Of a stretch of DNA of 64,000 nucleotides, positions 2,686 to 57,286 are shown piece after piece. A program made the translations under genes and the position numbers. Each line of letters begins with the position of its first letter. Within the stretch, counting starts at the first letter, position 1. The notes below the pieces were generated by a model. The model did not search any database. It was not told where the DNA came from and saw nothing but the letters and a program-made list of their open reading frames with translations. The stretch is from a virus: positions 3,128 through 67,127 of the IMG/VR virus record IMGVR_UViG_3300031578_009495. The stretch is one strand, 5' to 3'.

Positions 2686-4749
2686 ATGGAAAAGAATACA
2701 GTGTTTTATAAGCATGTAAATGCCAAAGCTGTAATACAAGATGGAAGTCCCATAAATGGGATAATACCAGACACAACGAATCGCTATAGCCAAATAGCCC
2801 AAAACACCACAGACCTAAGACCATTAATAAAATCATTAAACCTGCCGGAAGGCAAAGCTCAAGATCTTATATCGCAGATAGAAACATTGCGTGGAAATGA
2901 GACAGAAATGTTTATGGATATACTCAAAGAATTAAGTGATGGTGGTGAAAGCCAAAGTCTTAATAGTATAGTTAGCGATACATACGATGAGATTCCTGTA
3001 GATATTGAAACATTTTTCAGTAACAGTAACTATCTTGGCAGGGCTGGAGCAGACCTGTATCCTAAGTTAATGGAAGACCTTCTCAGATTGTTTAATGGGA
3101 ACTATACGGAAGTAATTTTAAGTGGAGCGATTGGTTATGGAAAAAGCTATTTAACACAGCTAATAATTTGTAGAATCCTGTATGAAGTCAGTTGTTTGAG
3201 AAATCCACAGTGGGCATACGGCCTTGCAGAAAACTCAACACTATTCTTTCCTAATATATCTGTGACGGAAACACAGGCAAAAAGAGTTATATTTGGAGGT
3301 ATAAAGGAGGCTCTCCGTGTATCACCATACTTTCGAGACCAGTTCCCTTTCGAAATGTATTCAACGGAAATGAAATTCCCTAAAAACATATTACTTGGAG
3401 CCATAGCTATGTCAGGCGCTCTTGGTATGGATGTGTTTGCAGCGGCAATGGACGAAACGAACTTTATGGATGTAGTGGAATCGTCAAGACAGGCCAGGGG
3501 AAAAAAATACGATCAGGCTGAAATAATTTATTCGTCTCTTGCAAGACGAATGAAATCAAGATTTTTAAAAAGAGGTAAGTTGCCTGGGATGCTTGTAATG
3601 CTATCGTCTGTTAACTACCCGAATGATTTTACTGAAAGAAAAAAAGAAGAGGCAAAAGAAAACCCGCTATTATTTGTTCTTGATTATGCACTATGGGAGC
3701 CAAAACCTGCAGGAACATATATGGATGAAAAATTTTGGATAAGCATGGGGACAGAGAACCAGCCCCCAAGAGTGATTGAAGACGAAGAAGAAGCTAAAAT
3801 AGAAATAGAAAGAGGTGTAGAGGTAATTGCACCACCTCTTGATTTCCTTCCTGACTTTAAAAGAGACATAGAGGGAGCGTTAAAGGACATAGCAGGCAAA
3901 AGCAAACTGCTTATTAACAGATTTATTACACAAACCGAAAAGATTTTTGAAAAGATAAACATAAACAGAAAACACCCATTTTCTCAACTACAAACAACGC
4001 TTGTAGATGGTGGTAAGTTTATTAGAGAATTGCTTGCGCATCAAATACCTGGCGCCGAAGGAAGTCCTGTATGGAGACCAATAGTAAGTCCATACACAAG
4101 ACGGTTTGGGCATATTGATCTTGCTGTAACTGGAGATGCGGCAGGATTTTGCATAGGGCATCCTAATGGAGAGATTCAGGTAACAAGAAGGAACGAAAAC
4201 CAGGAATTATATTCAGAGATAATGCCTATAGTTTATATAGATATTATGTTAAAAATTATACCACCGCAAGGGTCTGAAATTAATTTCGGAAATATTCGGA
4301 GTTTGTTATATGAACTACAATCTATGGGTTTTCTTTTTGAAAAAGTTACGCTTGATTCATATCAAAGTGTTGACACTATACAGATATTAAATGGACGCGG
4401 TATAAAGGCTGAAGATCTTTCAGTTGACACGTCTATGGAGCCTTACAATGAAGTTAAAAGTGCATTGTATGAAGACAGGCTTATGATGTATTGGTACGAT
4501 TTTGCATTAGATGAATTAAAAAGTCTTATAGTCTCAAGAAGTGGTAGCAAGGTTAAGGTGGATCACCTGCAAGGAAAGTCGAAAGATGTTTCAGACTGTA
4601 TAGCCGGAGTGGTATATAATTGCGTACAATGGATGCGGAATCCTAAGCGAGCGCCGGCACCTGGTCCAAGCCTGGGATATTTCTCAGGAGATGTTCAGGT
4701 AGAAAAGAAACCGGGAGATCTCGGAGAAGATGATTGGATAGATGGATAG
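2686..4749 (+). CDS. terL: terminase large subunit
   Basis: Walker A SGAIGYGKS, Walker B AAAMDETNF, RNaseH-like nuclease HIDLAVTGDAAGF, VTLDSYQS, DHLQGKSKDVSDCIAG. Confidence 0.9.
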   Translation: MEKNTVFYKHVNAKAVIQDGSPINGIIPDTTNRYSQIAQNTTDLRPLIKSLNLPEGKAQDLISQIETLRGNETEMFMDILKELSDGGESQSLNSIVSDTYDEIPVDIETFFSNSNYLGRAGADLYPKLMEDLLRLFNGNYTEVILSGAIGYGKSYLTQLIICRILYEVSCLRNPQWAYGLAENSTLFFPNISVTETQAKRVIFGGIKEALRVSPYFRDQFPFEMYSTEMKFPKNILLGAIAMSGALGMDVFAAAMDETNFMDVVESSRQARGKKYDQAEIIYSSLARRMKSRFLKRGKLPGMLVMLSSVNYPNDFTERKKEEAKENPLLFVLDYALWEPKPAGTYMDEKFWISMGTENQPPRVIEDEEEAKIEIERGVEVIAPPLDFLPDFKRDIEGALKDIAGKSKLLINRFITQTEKIFEKININRKHPFSQLQTTLVDGGKFIRELLAHQIPGAEGSPVWRPIVSPYTRRFGHIDLAVTGDAAGFCIGHPNGEIQVTRRNENQELYSEIMPIVYIDIMLKIIPPQGSEINFGNIRSLLYELQSMGFLFEKVTLDSYQSVDTIQILNGRGIKAEDLSVDTSMEPYNEVKSALYEDRLMMYWYDFALDELKSLIVSRSGSKVKVDHLQGKSKDVSDCIAGVVYNCVQWMRNPKRAPAPGPSLGYFSGDVQVEKKPGDLGEDDWIDG

Positions 4750-33689: not shown

Positions 33690-34249
33690 GGCTCACAAGG
33701 CCGCTCCTAAAGTTATATTGGAAGTATTTACAGCAACGCAAGCTTGCAGAGCTTAAAATGCAGATTAGGCTTGCTGGTGGAACGGTACCGGAAGACACTG
33801 AAGCGGAACTCAAATCAGCAGAAGAGGAAGCCATGGAAAGGTTAAAAAATCCGCTTAAAGATTTTCCAAATGATATTAAGTATTTTTCTGCGAATGAATG
33901 TATAAGTAAAATAGAGATAGGTGGACGGTTTAAGGGTAAGATAGCAAAAGAGAAGATCTGGGATAAAAAAAGAATGAACGCCTGCCTTGGGAAACATGGC
34001 ATTGTGGCAAAACGATGTTCGATGAATGATACGTTGTGGGCCAGATATACAAAACATGGTGACTCTCTGACGTTGGATATAATAAAACAGATGATGAAAT
34101 TTGATGCAAAAAGAAGAGAGCTTTATCCACCCAACTATAAGGGTACCGGCGAGGAACAGCCACCGGCAGAATACCTTGAAGAATTGAAATCATCCGGCAA
34201 GCTTGATACAATATACAAAGAAATGAACGAACTTTCAAATTTAGATTAG
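33524..34249 (+). CDS. -1 frameshift extension of the chaperone (GT-like)
   Basis: ORF 33446..34249 is in the -1 frame; LGEIYEAFAHEYGFTREYI typical of T-segments. Confidence 0.6.
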   Translation, partial: KKLQSTAELDKSGGERKHSSSLGEIYEAFAHEYGFTREYIQGRWETGGSNGRRLVGLTRPLLKLYWKYLQQRKLAELKMQIRLAGGTVPEDTEAELKSAEEEAMERLKNPLKDFPNDIKYFSANECISKIEIGGRFKGKIAKEKIWDKKRMNACLGKHGIVAKRCSMNDTLWARYTKHGDSLTLDIIKQMMKFDAKRRELYPPNYKGTGEEQPPAEYLEELKSSGKLDTIYKEMNELSNLD

Positions 34250-34280
34250 TCGCTCCCGATGTGGTGGCATGGATTGAAAC
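34249..34280 (+). CRISPR. solitary, degenerate type I-C-like CRISPR repeat (no array)
   Basis: GTCGCTCCCGATGTGGTGGCATGGATTGAAAC, 32 nt, same ends as the repeat at 54501. Confidence 0.65.
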
Positions 34281-42961: not shown

Positions 42962-43206
42962 AAACAGTGTCAAATATTGTAAGCAGTCTCAAAAAAGATT
43001 TATACAATTACACCTGTAATGCTGACGTTCAGGCATCCAGGAACATCGCTGAAGTTGGGCTAAATGCCTCTCTTCAAGAGCGGCCTGACACCGCTCCAGA
43101 TAATGCTGGGACTGAGTTAGAAAGCTCGGTCTGATGTGGTTTAAAAACCACAAACTTTGGTTCTATGTTAGAACCCCACGTGTTTCAACCGTGGGAGTAT
43201 GTCAGA
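42958..43206 (+). mobile_element. TnpB element remnant: 3' tnpB fragment plus omegaRNA/right end
   Basis: YTCNADVQASRNIAEVGLNA matches the tnpB C-terminus FQCNSDYGASRNIAEVGLNA; 43109-43206 matches the reverse complement of 54538-54635 at 95/98 nt. Confidence 0.88.
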
Positions 43207-51120: not shown

Positions 51121-51738
51121 ATGGTTAAAATAAATGCACCTTATGGAAGATTGACAGTAATAAAAGATGCTGGACGAACATCATATGGACGTAGACAATT
51201 TGAATGTTTATGTTCATGTGGCAATACCATTATAGCTGAGTCATCAAATATAGAACGAGGTCATACTTCAAGTTGTGGATGTCTTAGAGACGAACTACAA
51301 TTTAAACACGGCATGTCACAATCAAAAGAGTTTATGATTTGGGCTTCTATGCGTGCCAGATGCAATAATAAAAATAGTCAAAATTATAAGTTTTACGGGG
51401 CACGTGGTATTAAGGTTTGCGGGCGATGGGATAAATCTTTTAAAGCATTTTATGAAGACATGGGTTCTAAGCCTGATGGGCATTCAATTAATAGAGTAAA
51501 TAATGATGGAAATTACGAACCTTCAAATTGTGAGTGGTCAACTGCAAAAAATCAAATGAATAATATGCAAGGGAATCATAATATAACATTTAAGGGTATT
51601 ACGAAAACCCTTACTGAATGGTCTGAAAAATTTGGCTTAAAATCTCCAACAGTAAGGCGAAGATTAAAAAAAGGATGGTCGGTAGCAAACGCTTTAACTA
51701 TGCCATTGCGTCCAGGGAGGGCTTTAAAAAATGCCTGA
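51121..51738 (+). CDS. free-standing HNH homing endonuclease
   Basis: YGRLTVI, TSSCGC, WASMRARC, YGARGIKVCGRW, SINRVNNDGNYEPSNCEW. Confidence 0.9.
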   Translation: MVKINAPYGRLTVIKDAGRTSYGRRQFECLCSCGNTIIAESSNIERGHTSSCGCLRDELQFKHGMSQSKEFMIWASMRARCNNKNSQNYKFYGARGIKVCGRWDKSFKAFYEDMGSKPDGHSINRVNNDGNYEPSNCEWSTAKNQMNNMQGNHNITFKGITKTLTEWSEKFGLKSPTVRRRLKKGWSVANALTMPLRPGRALKNA

Positions 51739-53562: not shown

Positions 53563-53746
53563 AGTGCTCACGTTGGGATCGCTTCAACTAAGTGAGCGGC
53601 GAAATAGAGAGCGTCGCTCCCTTACGAGAGCAAAGACTGTATCATCAGCATTCTTGCGGTGGATGGAGCAGGCCGGTTGGCGGCATAAGCGAAAATTCTA
53701 TATCAGCATAGCCTATGTCGGCTATGGATAATTCTGAGGGGGGAAT

Positions 53747-54070
53747 ATGAAAAAAATTATAGCAATTCTTATCTTCGCAATTTTATTACTTGGTTGTGGG
53801 GATGATAAAGATTCGATAACACCTCAATGTAGGCACTATAGCGTATTACGGGCTCTGACCTTCAGCGAAAACTATGTAGTTAGGATAGCTTACGGTAAAA
53901 ATAGTACCGGAGCGACTCATTCTCAAGCCCAGGCACTTATAGATGGAAAATGGAAATGGTTGCAGAATGATGAAATGCCTGTTTATGTTGGTGAGCAGGA
54001 AGTTTTAACAATTGCTCATTATGTACCTATAGAGAAGGCTCTGGATTGGACGAAGCAAATCAAAAAATAA
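53747..54070 (+). CDS. lipoprotein with transglutaminase-like Cys/His residues
   Basis: lipobox LLLGC; QCRHYS...HSQAQALIDGKW. Confidence 0.5.
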   Translation: MKKIIAILIFAILLLGCGDDKDSITPQCRHYSVLRALTFSENYVVRIAYGKNSTGATHSQAQALIDGKWKWLQNDEMPVYVGEQEVLTIAHYVPIEKALDWTKQIKK

Positions 54071-54081
54071 AGGAGAAATAG

Positions 54082-54492
54082 ATGTTTGTTAATCCGACAG
54101 GTTTGAGTATTAGAAATGATTCTAAAGGTTTGGGACATCATGGAGCTCCGAGAGGTTTAAGAAAACATAACGGAATAGATCTTCTCTGCACTCCTAACCA
54201 ACCTATTAAAATGCCAGTAGCTGGTATTATCGTAAGAGAATCCTTACCATACAAAGATAACTTAGAATGGAGGGGAGTTCATATCGTTTCGGATAGAATA
54301 GAACTAAAATTATGGTACTTTTTACCGGATTTGAATTTAATAGGTTCTTATGTACGCCTTGGAGATATAATTGGATATGCTCAGGATATAAGTCGAAAGT
54401 ATTCCGGAGTTCTCCCTCACGTGCATTTACGGGTTGTTACAGTCGATCCGATGTTAATTTTTTTTAATGAAACAGGTTTTCTTTCGAAATAA
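54082..54492 (+). CDS. M23-family peptidase (endolysin candidate)
   Basis: HNGIDL (HxxxD) and HVHL (HxH) zinc motifs. Confidence 0.82.
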   Translation: MFVNPTGLSIRNDSKGLGHHGAPRGLRKHNGIDLLCTPNQPIKMPVAGIIVRESLPYKDNLEWRGVHIVSDRIELKLWYFLPDLNLIGSYVRLGDIIGYAQDISRKYSGVLPHVHLRVVTVDPMLIFFNETGFLSK

Positions 54493-54500
54493 CAAACTGC

Positions 54501-54532
54501 GTCGCTCCCGCATGGGGAGCGTGGATTGAAAC
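54501..54532 (+). CRISPR. solitary type I-C CRISPR repeat (no array)
   Basis: GTCGCTCCCGCATGGGGAGCGTGGATTGAAAC; stem GCTCCC/GGGAGC; canonical GTCGC...GTGGATTGAAAC ends. Confidence 0.82.
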
Positions 54533-54538
54533 GAACAT

Positions 54539-54700
54539 CTGACATATTCCCACGGTTAAAACACGTGGGGTTCTAACATAGAACCAAAGTTTGTGGTTTT
54601 TAAACCACATCAGGCCGAGCTTTCTAACTCAGTCCGGCTTAAAGCCGAGGCATATCAGTGTGCCTCTTGAGATTGAGCGTTTAGCCCAACCTCAGCGATG
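54539..54700 (-). ncRNA. TnpB omegaRNA scaffold (5' boundary approximate)
   Basis: structured region overlapping the tnpB 3' end through the right end; conserved in the second copy at 43109-43206. Confidence 0.65.
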
Positions 54701-55773
54701 TTCCGAGATGCGCCATAATCAGAATTGCACTGAAAATCACATTTCTTGCATCGGAAATTAGCTTGAGTTTGTCGATTAGAGCGAGAAGTGAAACCGCATT
54801 TATAGCACCGTCTCGACGTGTTTCTTGGGTCAACCAGCAACACCTCAATGCCAATACGTCTTGATTTATAAATTGTGAAATCAACCAATTGTTTAAAAGC
54901 CCAAGACGACATCATTCGATTAAATCGTTTGGATCCTCTTGCTCGTTCTCTAATGCCTTCAAGTTTCTCAAAACAAATAACAGGGTTGTCATATTGAGCA
55001 GCTATATCGACAATCTCTTTACTAATTTTATGGTTGGTATCAGTCATCCATCTTCGTTCATGGCCTCTCGACATTTTAACCTTGTCAATCCTGCCATGCT
55101 TCTGATACCTTTTACGGATATCAGCAAAATGTTCTCTTTTGTGCCTGATTTCTTTGCCATCAAATATCTTAACCATATCAGGCGTAGAAAGAGTTGCAAT
55201 GCGGACTATTCCAAGGTCAATGCCGATAAAAGTTTTGTCACCGGAACGTCCGGCAGGCATTGTTTTGACTGGAAGCATTGCGTACCACTGGCCATTGCGT
55301 TGAAAAAGCTTAGCGTCACCTTTAACAGATTTAATTCTATCTTTAAACTTTTCTGGCACACAAAGCGGAAGCCAAATATATTCACCACGTTTCCCTGTAG
55401 AGCAGCGCAAGGCAACCCTGTTGTCAGTGGTCTCAATCGAATAAGCATTAACACCAAGTCCAATACCTTGACAACCATTAACCTTCGGAAATTGAGCATT
55501 CTTTTGTTTCTTTCTCAGTTGGAAAAAAGAACGAGCAAGAGAAACCGCAGCATTAACGCTCATTCTTGCATAGTCAGAAGGCAACCCAAGCTTGCGTGCA
55601 GGATAATAAGAAACATTATGTATCTTACCCCTGGAGCTGGTAGAAAGATCGTTTGCAGCATCAAGACCGAGTTGAACAGCATTAGAAAATATATTAGCCA
55701 TATTCTCAAGCCATTCAGCTTTGTGTTTATTTGGTTTGATAATTTTAACTATGACGGCTTCTGTGTTTTGCAT
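54655..55773 (-). CDS. tnpB: TnpB RNA-guided nuclease (RuvC triad intact)
   Basis: IGIDLG (D), ICFEKL (E), CYKC/CKKC zinc finger, CNSDYGASRNI (D); start reassigned to ATG 55773. Confidence 0.93.
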   Translation of the reverse strand: MQNTEAVIVKIIKPNKHKAEWLENMANIFSNAVQLGLDAANDLSTSSRGKIHNVSYYPARKLGLPSDYARMSVNAAVSLARSFFQLRKKQKNAQFPKVNGCQGIGLGVNAYSIETTDNRVALRCSTGKRGEYIWLPLCVPEKFKDRIKSVKGDAKLFQRNGQWYAMLPVKTMPAGRSGDKTFIGIDLGIVRIATLSTPDMVKIFDGKEIRHKREHFADIRKRYQKHGRIDKVKMSRGHERRWMTDTNHKISKEIVDIAAQYDNPVICFEKLEGIRERARGSKRFNRMMSSWAFKQLVDFTIYKSRRIGIEVLLVDPRNTSRRCYKCGFTSRSNRQTQANFRCKKCDFQCNSDYGASRNIAEVGLNAQSQEAH

Positions 55774-55779
55774 AATCAT

Positions 55780-55808
55780 ATTATAGTTACGTAAAACGCA
55801 GTTGTCAA
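55780..55808 (-). promoter_or_regulatory. perfect sigma70 promoter for tnpB
   Basis: TTGACA(55808-55803)-17-TATAAT(55785-55780); ATG begins 7 nt downstream. Confidence 0.8.
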
Positions 55809-55899
55809 GTAATTTTATTAATATTTTTTTAAAAAAAAAAGAAAGGGTGCCGATTCCTCCCACGACTGAAGTACGTGGGCTTCCTCGGCATAAATAATC

Positions 55900-56313
55900 G
55901 TGAGCTTAATAACAACGCTCAAGTCGTTTCTATCAGCCCCAAAGGCTATAGACAAGGCTTTGGATGTCGGAGAGAAAATAACGTCAGGGATCATCTCTGG
56001 ACTGGACAAATTGGTTTTCACGGATGAGGAACTGGCTGACATAAAGCAGAAATCAAACGAACTCTTACTTGAATTCTGGGGGAAAATCGCAAATGAAAAC
56101 ACTGAACAGAGTAAAGCCAGGCGCTCTCTCGCCATGATGACGTTCAAAGTCTATTTCTTTTTGCTGCTGGCCGGTGTGGTGGTTTACAAAATAGATACAG
56201 CTTACTCTCAGTTTATTTTTGACGTGGCTGGTACTTTGACGTGGCTTGTTTCAGGTATTGCAGCGATTTTCTTTGGCCCCCACCAGTTGTCGAAAGTAAT
56301 TAAGAAAAAGTGA
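55900..56313 (+). CDS. holin-like protein (3TM GTA-holin type)
   Basis: LDKLVFTDEE motif and two C-terminal hydrophobic helices. Confidence 0.7.
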   Translation: MSLITTLKSFLSAPKAIDKALDVGEKITSGIISGLDKLVFTDEELADIKQKSNELLLEFWGKIANENTEQSKARRSLAMMTFKVYFFLLLAGVVVYKIDTAYSQFIFDVAGTLTWLVSGIAAIFFGPHQLSKVIKKK

Positions 56314-56351
56314 TTATTTCTGAACCCACCAGCATCAACATCATGATAGTA

Positions 56352-56407
56352 TCTCTTTCTCTTTCTCTTTCTCTTTCTCTTTCTCTTTCTCTTTCTCTTT
56401 CTCTTTC
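56352..56407. repeat. (TCTCTT)n microsatellite, about 9 units
   Basis: read directly. Confidence 0.9.
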
Positions 56408-56412
56408 AGACA

Positions 56413-56463: not shown

Positions 56464-56769
56464 TCGAACGTAAAAGCTCAAAATCAAAAACCGTGCCAAC
56501 TATTCAGCGAAATAAGTAACCTGGCCATTTCAATCTCTGTTTATACAGGCCATCAGTTCCCCTCAGTTAAAAACTCAAAACCCCATATCATCCTATTCAA
56601 TACTTTTGAATTTAGTAATATCTGCAATCAAATCAACATATTACAGTACAAGTAAAATGATGATTTTTGAATAAATCGCTGTTTATGCAGTCTCTCAGTA
56701 AAAGAAAAACTATCGAACGTAAAAGCTCAAAATCAAAAACCGTGCCAACTATTCAGCGAAATAAGTAAC
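56464..56769. repeat. 57-bp exact direct repeat (56464-56520 and 56713-56769)
   Basis: read directly; contains TTGGCACGGTTTTTGAT on the minus strand. Confidence 0.9.
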
Positions 56770-56830
56770 AATTGTATTTTTTAATATATGTAGTTGTCAA
56801 GCAAATAATAAAAAATAATTAACAATTCAT

Positions 56831-56857
56831 CCCACGACTGAAGTGCGTGGGCTTTCT
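56831..56857 (-). repeat. solo IS200/IS605-type end hairpin
   Basis: CCCACGACTGAAGTGCGTGGGCTTTCT, near-identical to 55859-55885. Confidence 0.7.
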
Positions 56858-57251: not shown

Positions 57252-57286
57252 GTCAATAACCCACGACTAAAGTACGTGGGTTTCCT
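57252..57286. repeat. solo IS200/IS605-type end hairpin
   Basis: GTCAATAACCCACGACTAAAGTACGTGGGTTTCCT. Confidence 0.7.

Follow-up and report, generated by a model that had tools for sequence, protein, structure and literature searches.

We analyzed a stretch of 64,000 nucleotides of phage DNA (the window; positions 3,128 to 67,127 of IMG/VR virus record IMGVR_UViG_3300031578_009495) and found that it contains a solitary type I-C CRISPR repeat in its late lysis genes. The repeat is located between a gene for a putative endolysin and a gene for a holin-like membrane protein, and a TnpB-only insertion sequence (IS) element of the IS200/IS605 family is inserted next to it. We refer to this repeat as solitary repeat unit 1 (SRU1), and to a second, degenerate copy elsewhere in the window as SRU2. 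Based on its sequence, position and orientation, SRU1 is a candidate for an RNA anti-CRISPR (Racr), as an earlier note on this DNA had proposed. The virus record is 94,313 bp long, ~52% complete, and has a GC content of 38.6%. The features of the region are summarized in Table 1.

A type I-C repeat between two lysis genes

We found that SRU1 is a true type I-C solitary repeat. Its first base is 8 nt past the TAA stop codon of the open reading frame (ORF) at 54082-54492 (+ strand). The earlier note had described an intact 32-nt repeat at this position, and the sequence, the predicted fold and the score against an independent model all agree with that description. The model was a covariance model made from 19 independent repeats of bacterial type I-C arrays from many phyla, and the copy in the window was excluded from it. 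SRU1 matched the model over its full length with a score of 46 bits (E = 1.3e-10 in a search of 94.6 kb, both strands).

The RNA of SRU1 is predicted to fold into a 2-nt 5' overhang, a 7-bp stem, a 5-nt loop and an 11-nt 3' tail (-14.3 kcal/mol, z = -3). This agrees exactly with the architecture described for type I-C repeats (PMC8524198). Cas5c cleaves such repeats after nt 21, at the stem's base, and leaves a 2',3'-cyclic phosphate and a 5'-OH. At least one Cas5c relies mainly on U22-G23-G24 and the base of the stem, and not on the loop (PMC8524198). The tail of SRU1 starts with UGG (U22-G23-G24, after the cut site) and ends with AUUGAAAC. By sequence comparison, all of the positions reported to be critical for Cas5c are present in SRU1.

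SRU1 is not part of an array. At up to 3 mismatches it occurs only once, both in the window and in the whole 94,313-bp record. It is intergenic and there is no full or partial repeat within 100 bp, which makes it a solitary repeat in the sense of SRUFinder; the nearest other match is 20 kb away. We found no second repeat, even a degenerate one, one spacer length from SRU1, and so no CRISPR mini-array. There were no CRISPR spacers in the phage, and no match to Cas5/Cas5d in the 94 kb of the record, which is only ~52% complete.

Although SRU1 is solitary locally, as the earlier note had stated, it is not the only type I-C-like repeat in this phage. The covariance model also gave a significant match to SRU2. 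SRU2 begins with the G of the TAG stop codon of an upstream gene for a 163-aa chaperone-like protein. It ends 12 nt before the ATG of a gene for a 955-aa tape-measure-like protein, and a GAGGA ribosome-binding site directly follows it. The first 9 nt and the last 11 nt of SRU2 are intact. All 7 mismatches are in the loop and the 3' arm of the stem, and they break 2 of the 7 stem pairs, including the basal pair beside the cut site. Both SRU1 and SRU2 are in the sense orientation of their operon.

We compared both junctions to those in related phages. The M23 peptidase is 60-68% identical in four related phage contigs, and in all four the gap between the M23 gene and the holin-like gene is only 0-9 nt and contains no repeat. 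Thus, SRU1 is an acquired, lineage-specific insert at a junction that is normally tight. Likewise, in relatives the chaperone-like and tape-measure-like genes overlap or are 6 nt apart, without a repeat. SRU2 is a similar insertion. Conservation in relatives, to which the earlier note had tied its proposal, was not seen: the repeat was absent from all of the related phages recovered. This absence fits a recent gain better than an old, conserved function.

Several other observations concern possible additional copies. Two hairpins that start with GTCGCTCC, at window positions 53613-53644 and at genome position 77277-77310, were considered as decayed copies. Neither of them scored as well as E = 10 against the model, and we do not count them here. 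Both are intergenic, on the + strand, and begin with GTCGCTCC(C). On each strand, this 8-mer is more frequent than expected (4 and 5 copies versus ~0.5). The contig with the closest relative of the chaperone-like gene (86% identity) ends 22 nt past the stop codon, in GTCG (L186:1881-1902). It is possible that the assembly broke at a copy of the repeat, but 4 nt cannot decide this. A different phage record, IMGVR_UViG_3300032156_001598 (20.8 kb), has two separate solitary type I-C repeats with the same loop, so having more than one solitary copy is not unique to the phage described here.

The genes on either side of SRU1 had been called endolysin and holin in the earlier note, and these labels are fair. 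A profile of the M23 peptidase (14 homologues) matched the structures of M23, LytM, lysostaphin and LECT2, and the HxxxD and HxH zinc ligands were invariant across the profile. The holin-like protein is 58% identical to the product of the gene after the M23 gene in the closest relative (L159). The Atlas phage clusters nearest to it carry GTA_holin_3TM, and its hydrophobic segments are C-terminal. Because homology of the holin-like protein starts at residue 4-10, no start codon other than the GTG is possible. A terminator-like hairpin at 54430-54450, inside the 3' end of the M23 gene, was no more than expected by chance.

Table 1. Features at and around the solitary repeats in the window.
Feature	Position	Strand	Basis
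Degenerate I-C-like repeat (SRU2)	34249..34280	+	Covariance model, 20.6 bits, E 0.0027; 7 mismatches
Remnant of a second element in opposite orientation: orphan right end and omegaRNA	43033..43206	+	Similarity to the element
M23-family peptidase, putative endolysin, 136 aa	54082..54492	+	Pfam M23, weak (E 0.0012); homologue profile
Solitary type I-C CRISPR repeat (SRU1), 32 nt	54501..54532	+	Canonical 2+7+5+7+11 layout; array-derived model; fold
DNA flank that the omegaRNA would carry as guide	54519..54538	-	Adjoins the conserved right end; Rfam HgcC-type match runs to 54526
Putative omegaRNA-like scaffold overlapping the 3' end of tnpB	54526..54668	-	Rfam HgcC, 29.6 bits, E 4e-5, below gathering score
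6-nt stretch GAACAT between SRU1 and the right end of the IS	54533..54538	+	Sequence
TnpB-only IS200/IS605-family element, 1,361 bp, no tnpA	54539..55899	-	Elements in other phage contigs match 54539-55885 at 78% DNA identity
tnpB, 372 aa	54655..55773	-	Pfam OrfB_IS605 and Cas12f1-like TNB domain
Sigma-70-type promoter before tnpB	55780..55808	-	Promoter motif match, 12/12 consensus positions
Holin-like membrane protein, 137 aa, GTG start	55900..56313	+	Relative L159; Atlas clusters
Solo left-end hairpin remnant	56825..56857	+	Adjacent promoter-like site; remnant region 56771-56857
Second solo left-end-like hairpin	57260..57286	+	Just upstream of ORF 57302

A bacterial source-type repeat and a lead to the host

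We found a near-identical repeat at a genuine type I-C locus. The exact 32-mer of SRU1 was not found in GTDB (one genome per species) or in IMG/VR. When the 5 nt of the loop were left free in a pattern search, arrays from many phyla were found to share the stem and handle of SRU1, but never its loop. In a scan of metagenomes, the 32-mer was found once, in a 64-repeat array of contig Ga0073934_10000297 (L147). The other 63 of the 64 repeats in this array are 33 nt long; owing to one additional C, their stem has 8 bp and their loop 4 nt. This 33-mer is also present in a Chloroflexota metagenome-assembled genome (JACAEM01), in an array that has spacers in common with that of Ga0073934_10000297. 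There, a single 6.8-kb contig holds the repeat together with cas8c/Csd1 (E = 1.5e-175) and cas2.

The array repeat and SRU1 are alike at 32 of 33 positions and have the same handle, stem and loop letters. They differ in their fold: an 8-bp stem with a tetraloop in the array repeat, and in SRU1, which is missing one C, the 7-bp stem and pentaloop that are typical of other type I-C repeats. Because the 33-mer shares a contig with cas8c and cas2 in the Chloroflexota genome, SRU1 is a one-base deletion variant of a bona fide type I-C repeat. We regard the lineage that has the matching repeat as a lead to the host, and not as proof of what the host is.

Two other ideas were considered and set aside. 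Integration into CRISPR arrays is unlikely, as there was no tyrosine integrase in the 94 kb. An origin of solitary repeats from the leader-proximal repeat, for which a recurrent TTA before several viral copies might speak, was rejected because leader/repeat junctions end differently.

A TnpB element adjacent to the repeat

The element next to SRU1 has tnpB as its only long ORF, and no gene for a Y1 transposase (TnpA) was found in its 1,361 bp. The element is non-autonomous. When aligned to solved TnpB and Cas12f structures, its TnpB has RuvC I, II and III (the D/E/D motifs) and the zinc finger. The closest relatives of this TnpB (75-85% identity) are all on phage contigs, and no DNA relative of the element was found in the INPHARED phage collection. 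The omegaRNA-like scaffold is 85% identical to the orphan copy at 43033-43206. Hairpins of the form CCCACG...CGTGGG are present near both ends, at 54549-54569 (right) and 55859-55879 (left).

The right end of the element is well defined and is 6 nt from SRU1, where the earlier note had put it. Conserved sequence stops at ...TATGTCAG, at window position 54539, in all of the elements compared. This is the exact base at which four related elements, the internal remnant and the loose ends of metagenome contigs diverge. At the left end, T[TC]AC followed by GA is found 8-10 nt before a conserved GCCGAGGAAG/GGCAAGAAAG block in 3 elements and 1 solo left end. The second solo left end has TTAC alone, 5 nt before the block. 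The distance from the TTAC-like cleavage or target motif to the foot of the hairpin is 18-20 nt on the left and 10 nt on the right, which we take to be the geometry of IS608. Y1 transposases insert elements 3' of a target motif.

Based on this comparison of element ends, the left boundary is more likely between 55899 and 55900 than between 55889 and 55890. The probable transposon-associated motif (TAM) is then TCAC, the reverse complement of GTGA, in which the holin start codon is followed by one further base. Without the element, the site would probably read repeat-GAACAT-GTG (...GAAACGAACAT followed directly by GTGAGC). The earlier note had also placed GAACAT after the repeat, which stands, and had put the repeat ~16 nt before the holin start; the original gap was probably 6 nt. 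There is one observation in favor of the 16-nt version (GAACAT followed by ATAAATAATCGTG): in one relative, the native sequence upstream of the start codon is similar to the disputed 10 nt. No IS-free allele was found in the contigs of four sequencing runs, and because these contigs are short this is little proof. One contig of a second soil metagenome run (X2) is missing one base exactly at 55899, just before the holin GTG.

The element has much in common with TnpB-only IS200/IS605 elements with IS608-type ends. Its tnpB encodes the RuvC motifs and the zinc finger. Of its subterminal hairpins, one lies ~19-20 nt inside the left end and the other 10 nt inside the right end, and a probable TTAC-like motif precedes the left end on the 5' side. 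A putative omegaRNA covers the 3' end of tnpB, with its guide in the right flank. It differs from IS608-type elements in that it has no tnpA, its lineage is found mainly in phage contigs, and its probable TAM, TCAC, overlaps a start codon.

The guide of TnpB is always the DNA that flanks the right end of the element. Read as a guide, the right flank here is ATGTTCGTTTCAATCCACGC, and nt 7-20 (14 nt) are antisense to SRU1, as the earlier note had seen; this can be read directly from the flank. The complementarity spans the 11-nt handle of the repeat. Because the guide is by definition the right-end flank, the 14-nt overlap follows from the insertion site alone. In addition, the six TAM-proximal bases of the guide have no match in the arrays. 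Since the TAM and these bases would have to lie in a spacer, the host arrays would not be DNA targets of the guide. The element probably landed beside SRU1 by accident.

Additional traces of this element family are nearby. The two solo left ends and the orphan right end indicate that the genome has been invaded several times. The first solo left end has a promoter-like site beside it (TTGACA-18-TACAAT). A related phage contig (L187:17281-17442), whose chaperone-like protein is 73% identical to that of the phage described here, also has a gene for TnpB within the tail module, and such elements seem to be in wide circulation among these phages.

Other sequences of note in the region include a 57-nt perfect direct repeat (56464-56520 and 56713-56769, 249 nt apart) that is non-coding and adjoins a solo left-end remnant of the IS, and a CTCTTT hexanucleotide microsatellite of ~10 copies (56351-56408) in the long non-coding stretch after the holin-like gene, where metagenome contigs break. 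Directly upstream of the endolysin gene is a gene for a small lipoprotein (53747-54070) with a weak match to the superinfection-exclusion protein Cor (phrog_1119, E = 4e-6). A free-standing HNH endonuclease is encoded at 51121-51738.

Possible functions of the solitary repeat

In 2023, Camara-Wilpert et al. (PMC10651486) described solitary repeats in viruses, among them type I-C repeats and repeats on IMG/VR contigs, and validated them in part. A decoy mechanism was demonstrated for RacrIC1 and RacrIF1. RacrIC1, a solitary repeat of type I-C, lies 11 nt past acrIC5 and is transcribed together with it; on its own, RacrIC1 inhibits type I-C interference (PMC10651486). SRU1 resembles RacrIC1 in several ways. 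It is a single type I-C repeat in a phage, without cas genes or a second repeat beside it, it lies a few nucleotides past the stop codon of the upstream gene, it is in the sense orientation, and it has no promoter of its own. Given this position and orientation, co-transcription with the upstream gene is expected. Several other viral type I-C solitary repeats that we retrieved are also in the sense orientation, in short gaps between co-directional ORFs.

There are differences as well. The gene upstream of RacrIC1 is an acr gene, whereas that upstream of SRU1 encodes an M23 endolysin in a late lysis cassette, and the activity of SRU1 is a prediction from its sequence. In addition, the phage described here has a second, decayed copy, and a TnpB element separates SRU1 from the next gene.

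We propose the following series of events. A phage of this lineage would have captured a 32-nt copy of a bacterial type I-C repeat, and the bare repeat would have been inserted in the sense orientation at the junction of the endolysin and holin-like genes. Without a promoter of its own, SRU1 would be carried on the late lysis mRNA. If the host has a type I-C system, its Cas5c would recognize the base of the stem together with the UGG-AUUGAAAC tail. The cut would fall after nt 21 (window position 54521), and the downstream piece, from 54522, would begin with UGGAUUGAAAC. Cas5c and Cas7 would be tied up on an RNA that has no useful guide, which could produce an anti-CRISPR effect. SRU2, at the chaperone/tape-measure junction, may be an older or decaying instance of the same process. 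Later, the TnpB-only element would have inserted 3' of the TCAC that overlaps the holin start codon, 6 nt from SRU1. Of the explanations considered, we favor the proposal that SRU1 is a Racr-type RNA decoy that is co-transcribed with the late genes, and we give it even chances.

The canonical type I-C architecture with its Cas5c features, the sense orientation, and the near-identical repeat at a real type I-C locus make SRU1 a legitimate Racr candidate, and to this extent the idea in the earlier note was borne out. Several findings weigh against a decoy. The absence of the repeat from relatives means that it is not conserved. We found no promoter before SRU1 and no recognizable acr gene beside it, and the late lysis genes are a late position for an anti-CRISPR. 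The fold of SRU2 is no better than that of shuffled sequence, as expected if such inserts decay neutrally. None of the 1,822 spacers from all of the arrays retrieved matched the phage (the longest match was 19/35 nt), and the GC content of the only genomes with a matching repeat is ~56%, 17 points higher than that of the phage.

Some of these same findings would be expected if the repeats were neutral relics, that is, by-products of recombination with host arrays or other phages that have no function and are tolerated at cistron junctions because few other sites can take up an insert without harm. The repeat is missing from all relatives, the stem base of SRU2 is broken and its fold is unremarkable, there is no promoter or acr neighbor, and the same junction has tolerated the TnpB element too. 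However, SRU1 is perfect at every position relevant to Cas5c and both copies are in the sense orientation. The mismatches in SRU2 are clustered in the middle and spare the ends, a pattern that, by our estimate, uniform decay would give ~5 times in 1,000. Neutrality also does not explain how a bare unit of 32 nt came to be inserted precisely at each of two junctions. We regard neutral relics as a serious alternative, but a rather unlikely one. It is also possible, although improbable in our view, that the repeats serve in mRNA processing. Host Cas5c would cut the polycistronic late mRNA at two stop-to-start junctions and so uncouple the messages for the tape measure and the holin, or stabilize them, as pieces that are stabilized or translated separately. 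A protective hairpin would close the upstream piece, a Cas-bound 5'-OH handle would open the downstream one, and the repeat would be a gene-expression device first and a decoy only secondarily. The two units are indeed at cistron junctions, 0-8 nt past a stop codon and 6-12 nt before a start codon, and Cas5c does leave a 2',3'-cyclic phosphate and a 5'-OH. But these junction positions are equally expected for a decoy or a relic, and the basal stem pair is lost in SRU2, a kind of mutation reported to block at least one Cas5c (PMC8524198). Relatives manage without such a site, and the phage would depend on an immune protein that is not in all hosts.

The remaining explanations seem far less probable. 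SRU1 adjoins the right end of the IS, and the repeat and the IS together are everything that relatives lack at this junction, so the repeat might have arrived with the TnpB element, as a piece of flanking host array carried along by read-through transposition. We think this very unlikely: SRU2 has no adjoining IS, there is no repeat beyond ...TATGTCAG in four related elements or in the orphan right end, and the CRISPR hairpin is unlike the CCCACG...CGTGGG hairpins of the element. We give even less weight to a Cracr-type guide RNA, in which the repeat and the sequence downstream would direct host Cascade to repress cas or toxin promoters. Such a class exists for type I-C, and Cracr RNAs share with SRU1 a lone repeat-like unit in a phage (bioRxiv 10.1101/2024.10.29.618823). 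Unlike them, SRU1 is not followed by a sequence that matches a cas locus as a guide would; what comes after each repeat is the region where translation of a phage gene starts. No match of 9 or more PAM-proximal nucleotides to a cas or creT promoter was found. In the one genome with the matching array (G001), TTC plus the first 11 nt after either repeat had no exact match, and the sole near match on the cas contig was inside cas2 with the wrong protospacer-adjacent motif (GTC). The cas3 promoter is not on that contig, and the host is uncertain. Finally, the earlier note had raised the possibility that the TnpB guide acts as an antisense RNA. The guide, 14 nt of which are antisense to every repeat of this type, would pair with the repeat transcript or with host precursor CRISPR RNA (pre-crRNA) and block maturation of crRNAs. 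The complementarity does cover the handle, and the omegaRNA-like scaffold and the tnpB promoter are intact. On the other side, the overlap is automatic from the insertion site, the six TAM-proximal bases are unmatched in arrays, and we know of no RNA-targeting activity of TnpB. We found no support for this idea and consider it barely credible.

Whatever the function of SRU1, the locus is informative in several respects. The repeat is a testable clue to the host, namely a lineage with this type I-C repeat. The TnpB insertion offers a natural case in which the probable TAM lies over a start codon, and it illustrates how the content of a guide can look meaningful by accident. Of moderate interest are the bare inserts at stop-to-start junctions that relatives lack, the presence of one perfect and one decaying copy, and the probable IS target motif over a start codon. 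Relatives without the repeat at both junctions provide a before-and-after picture of the gain, and possibly the decay, of a bare 32-nt unit at gene boundaries. If SRU1 is active as an RNA decoy, it would add a type I-C RNA anti-CRISPR from an uncultured, large phage of soil or groundwater, and would indicate that such decoys can ride in late structural and lysis operons, and not only in early anti-defense loci.

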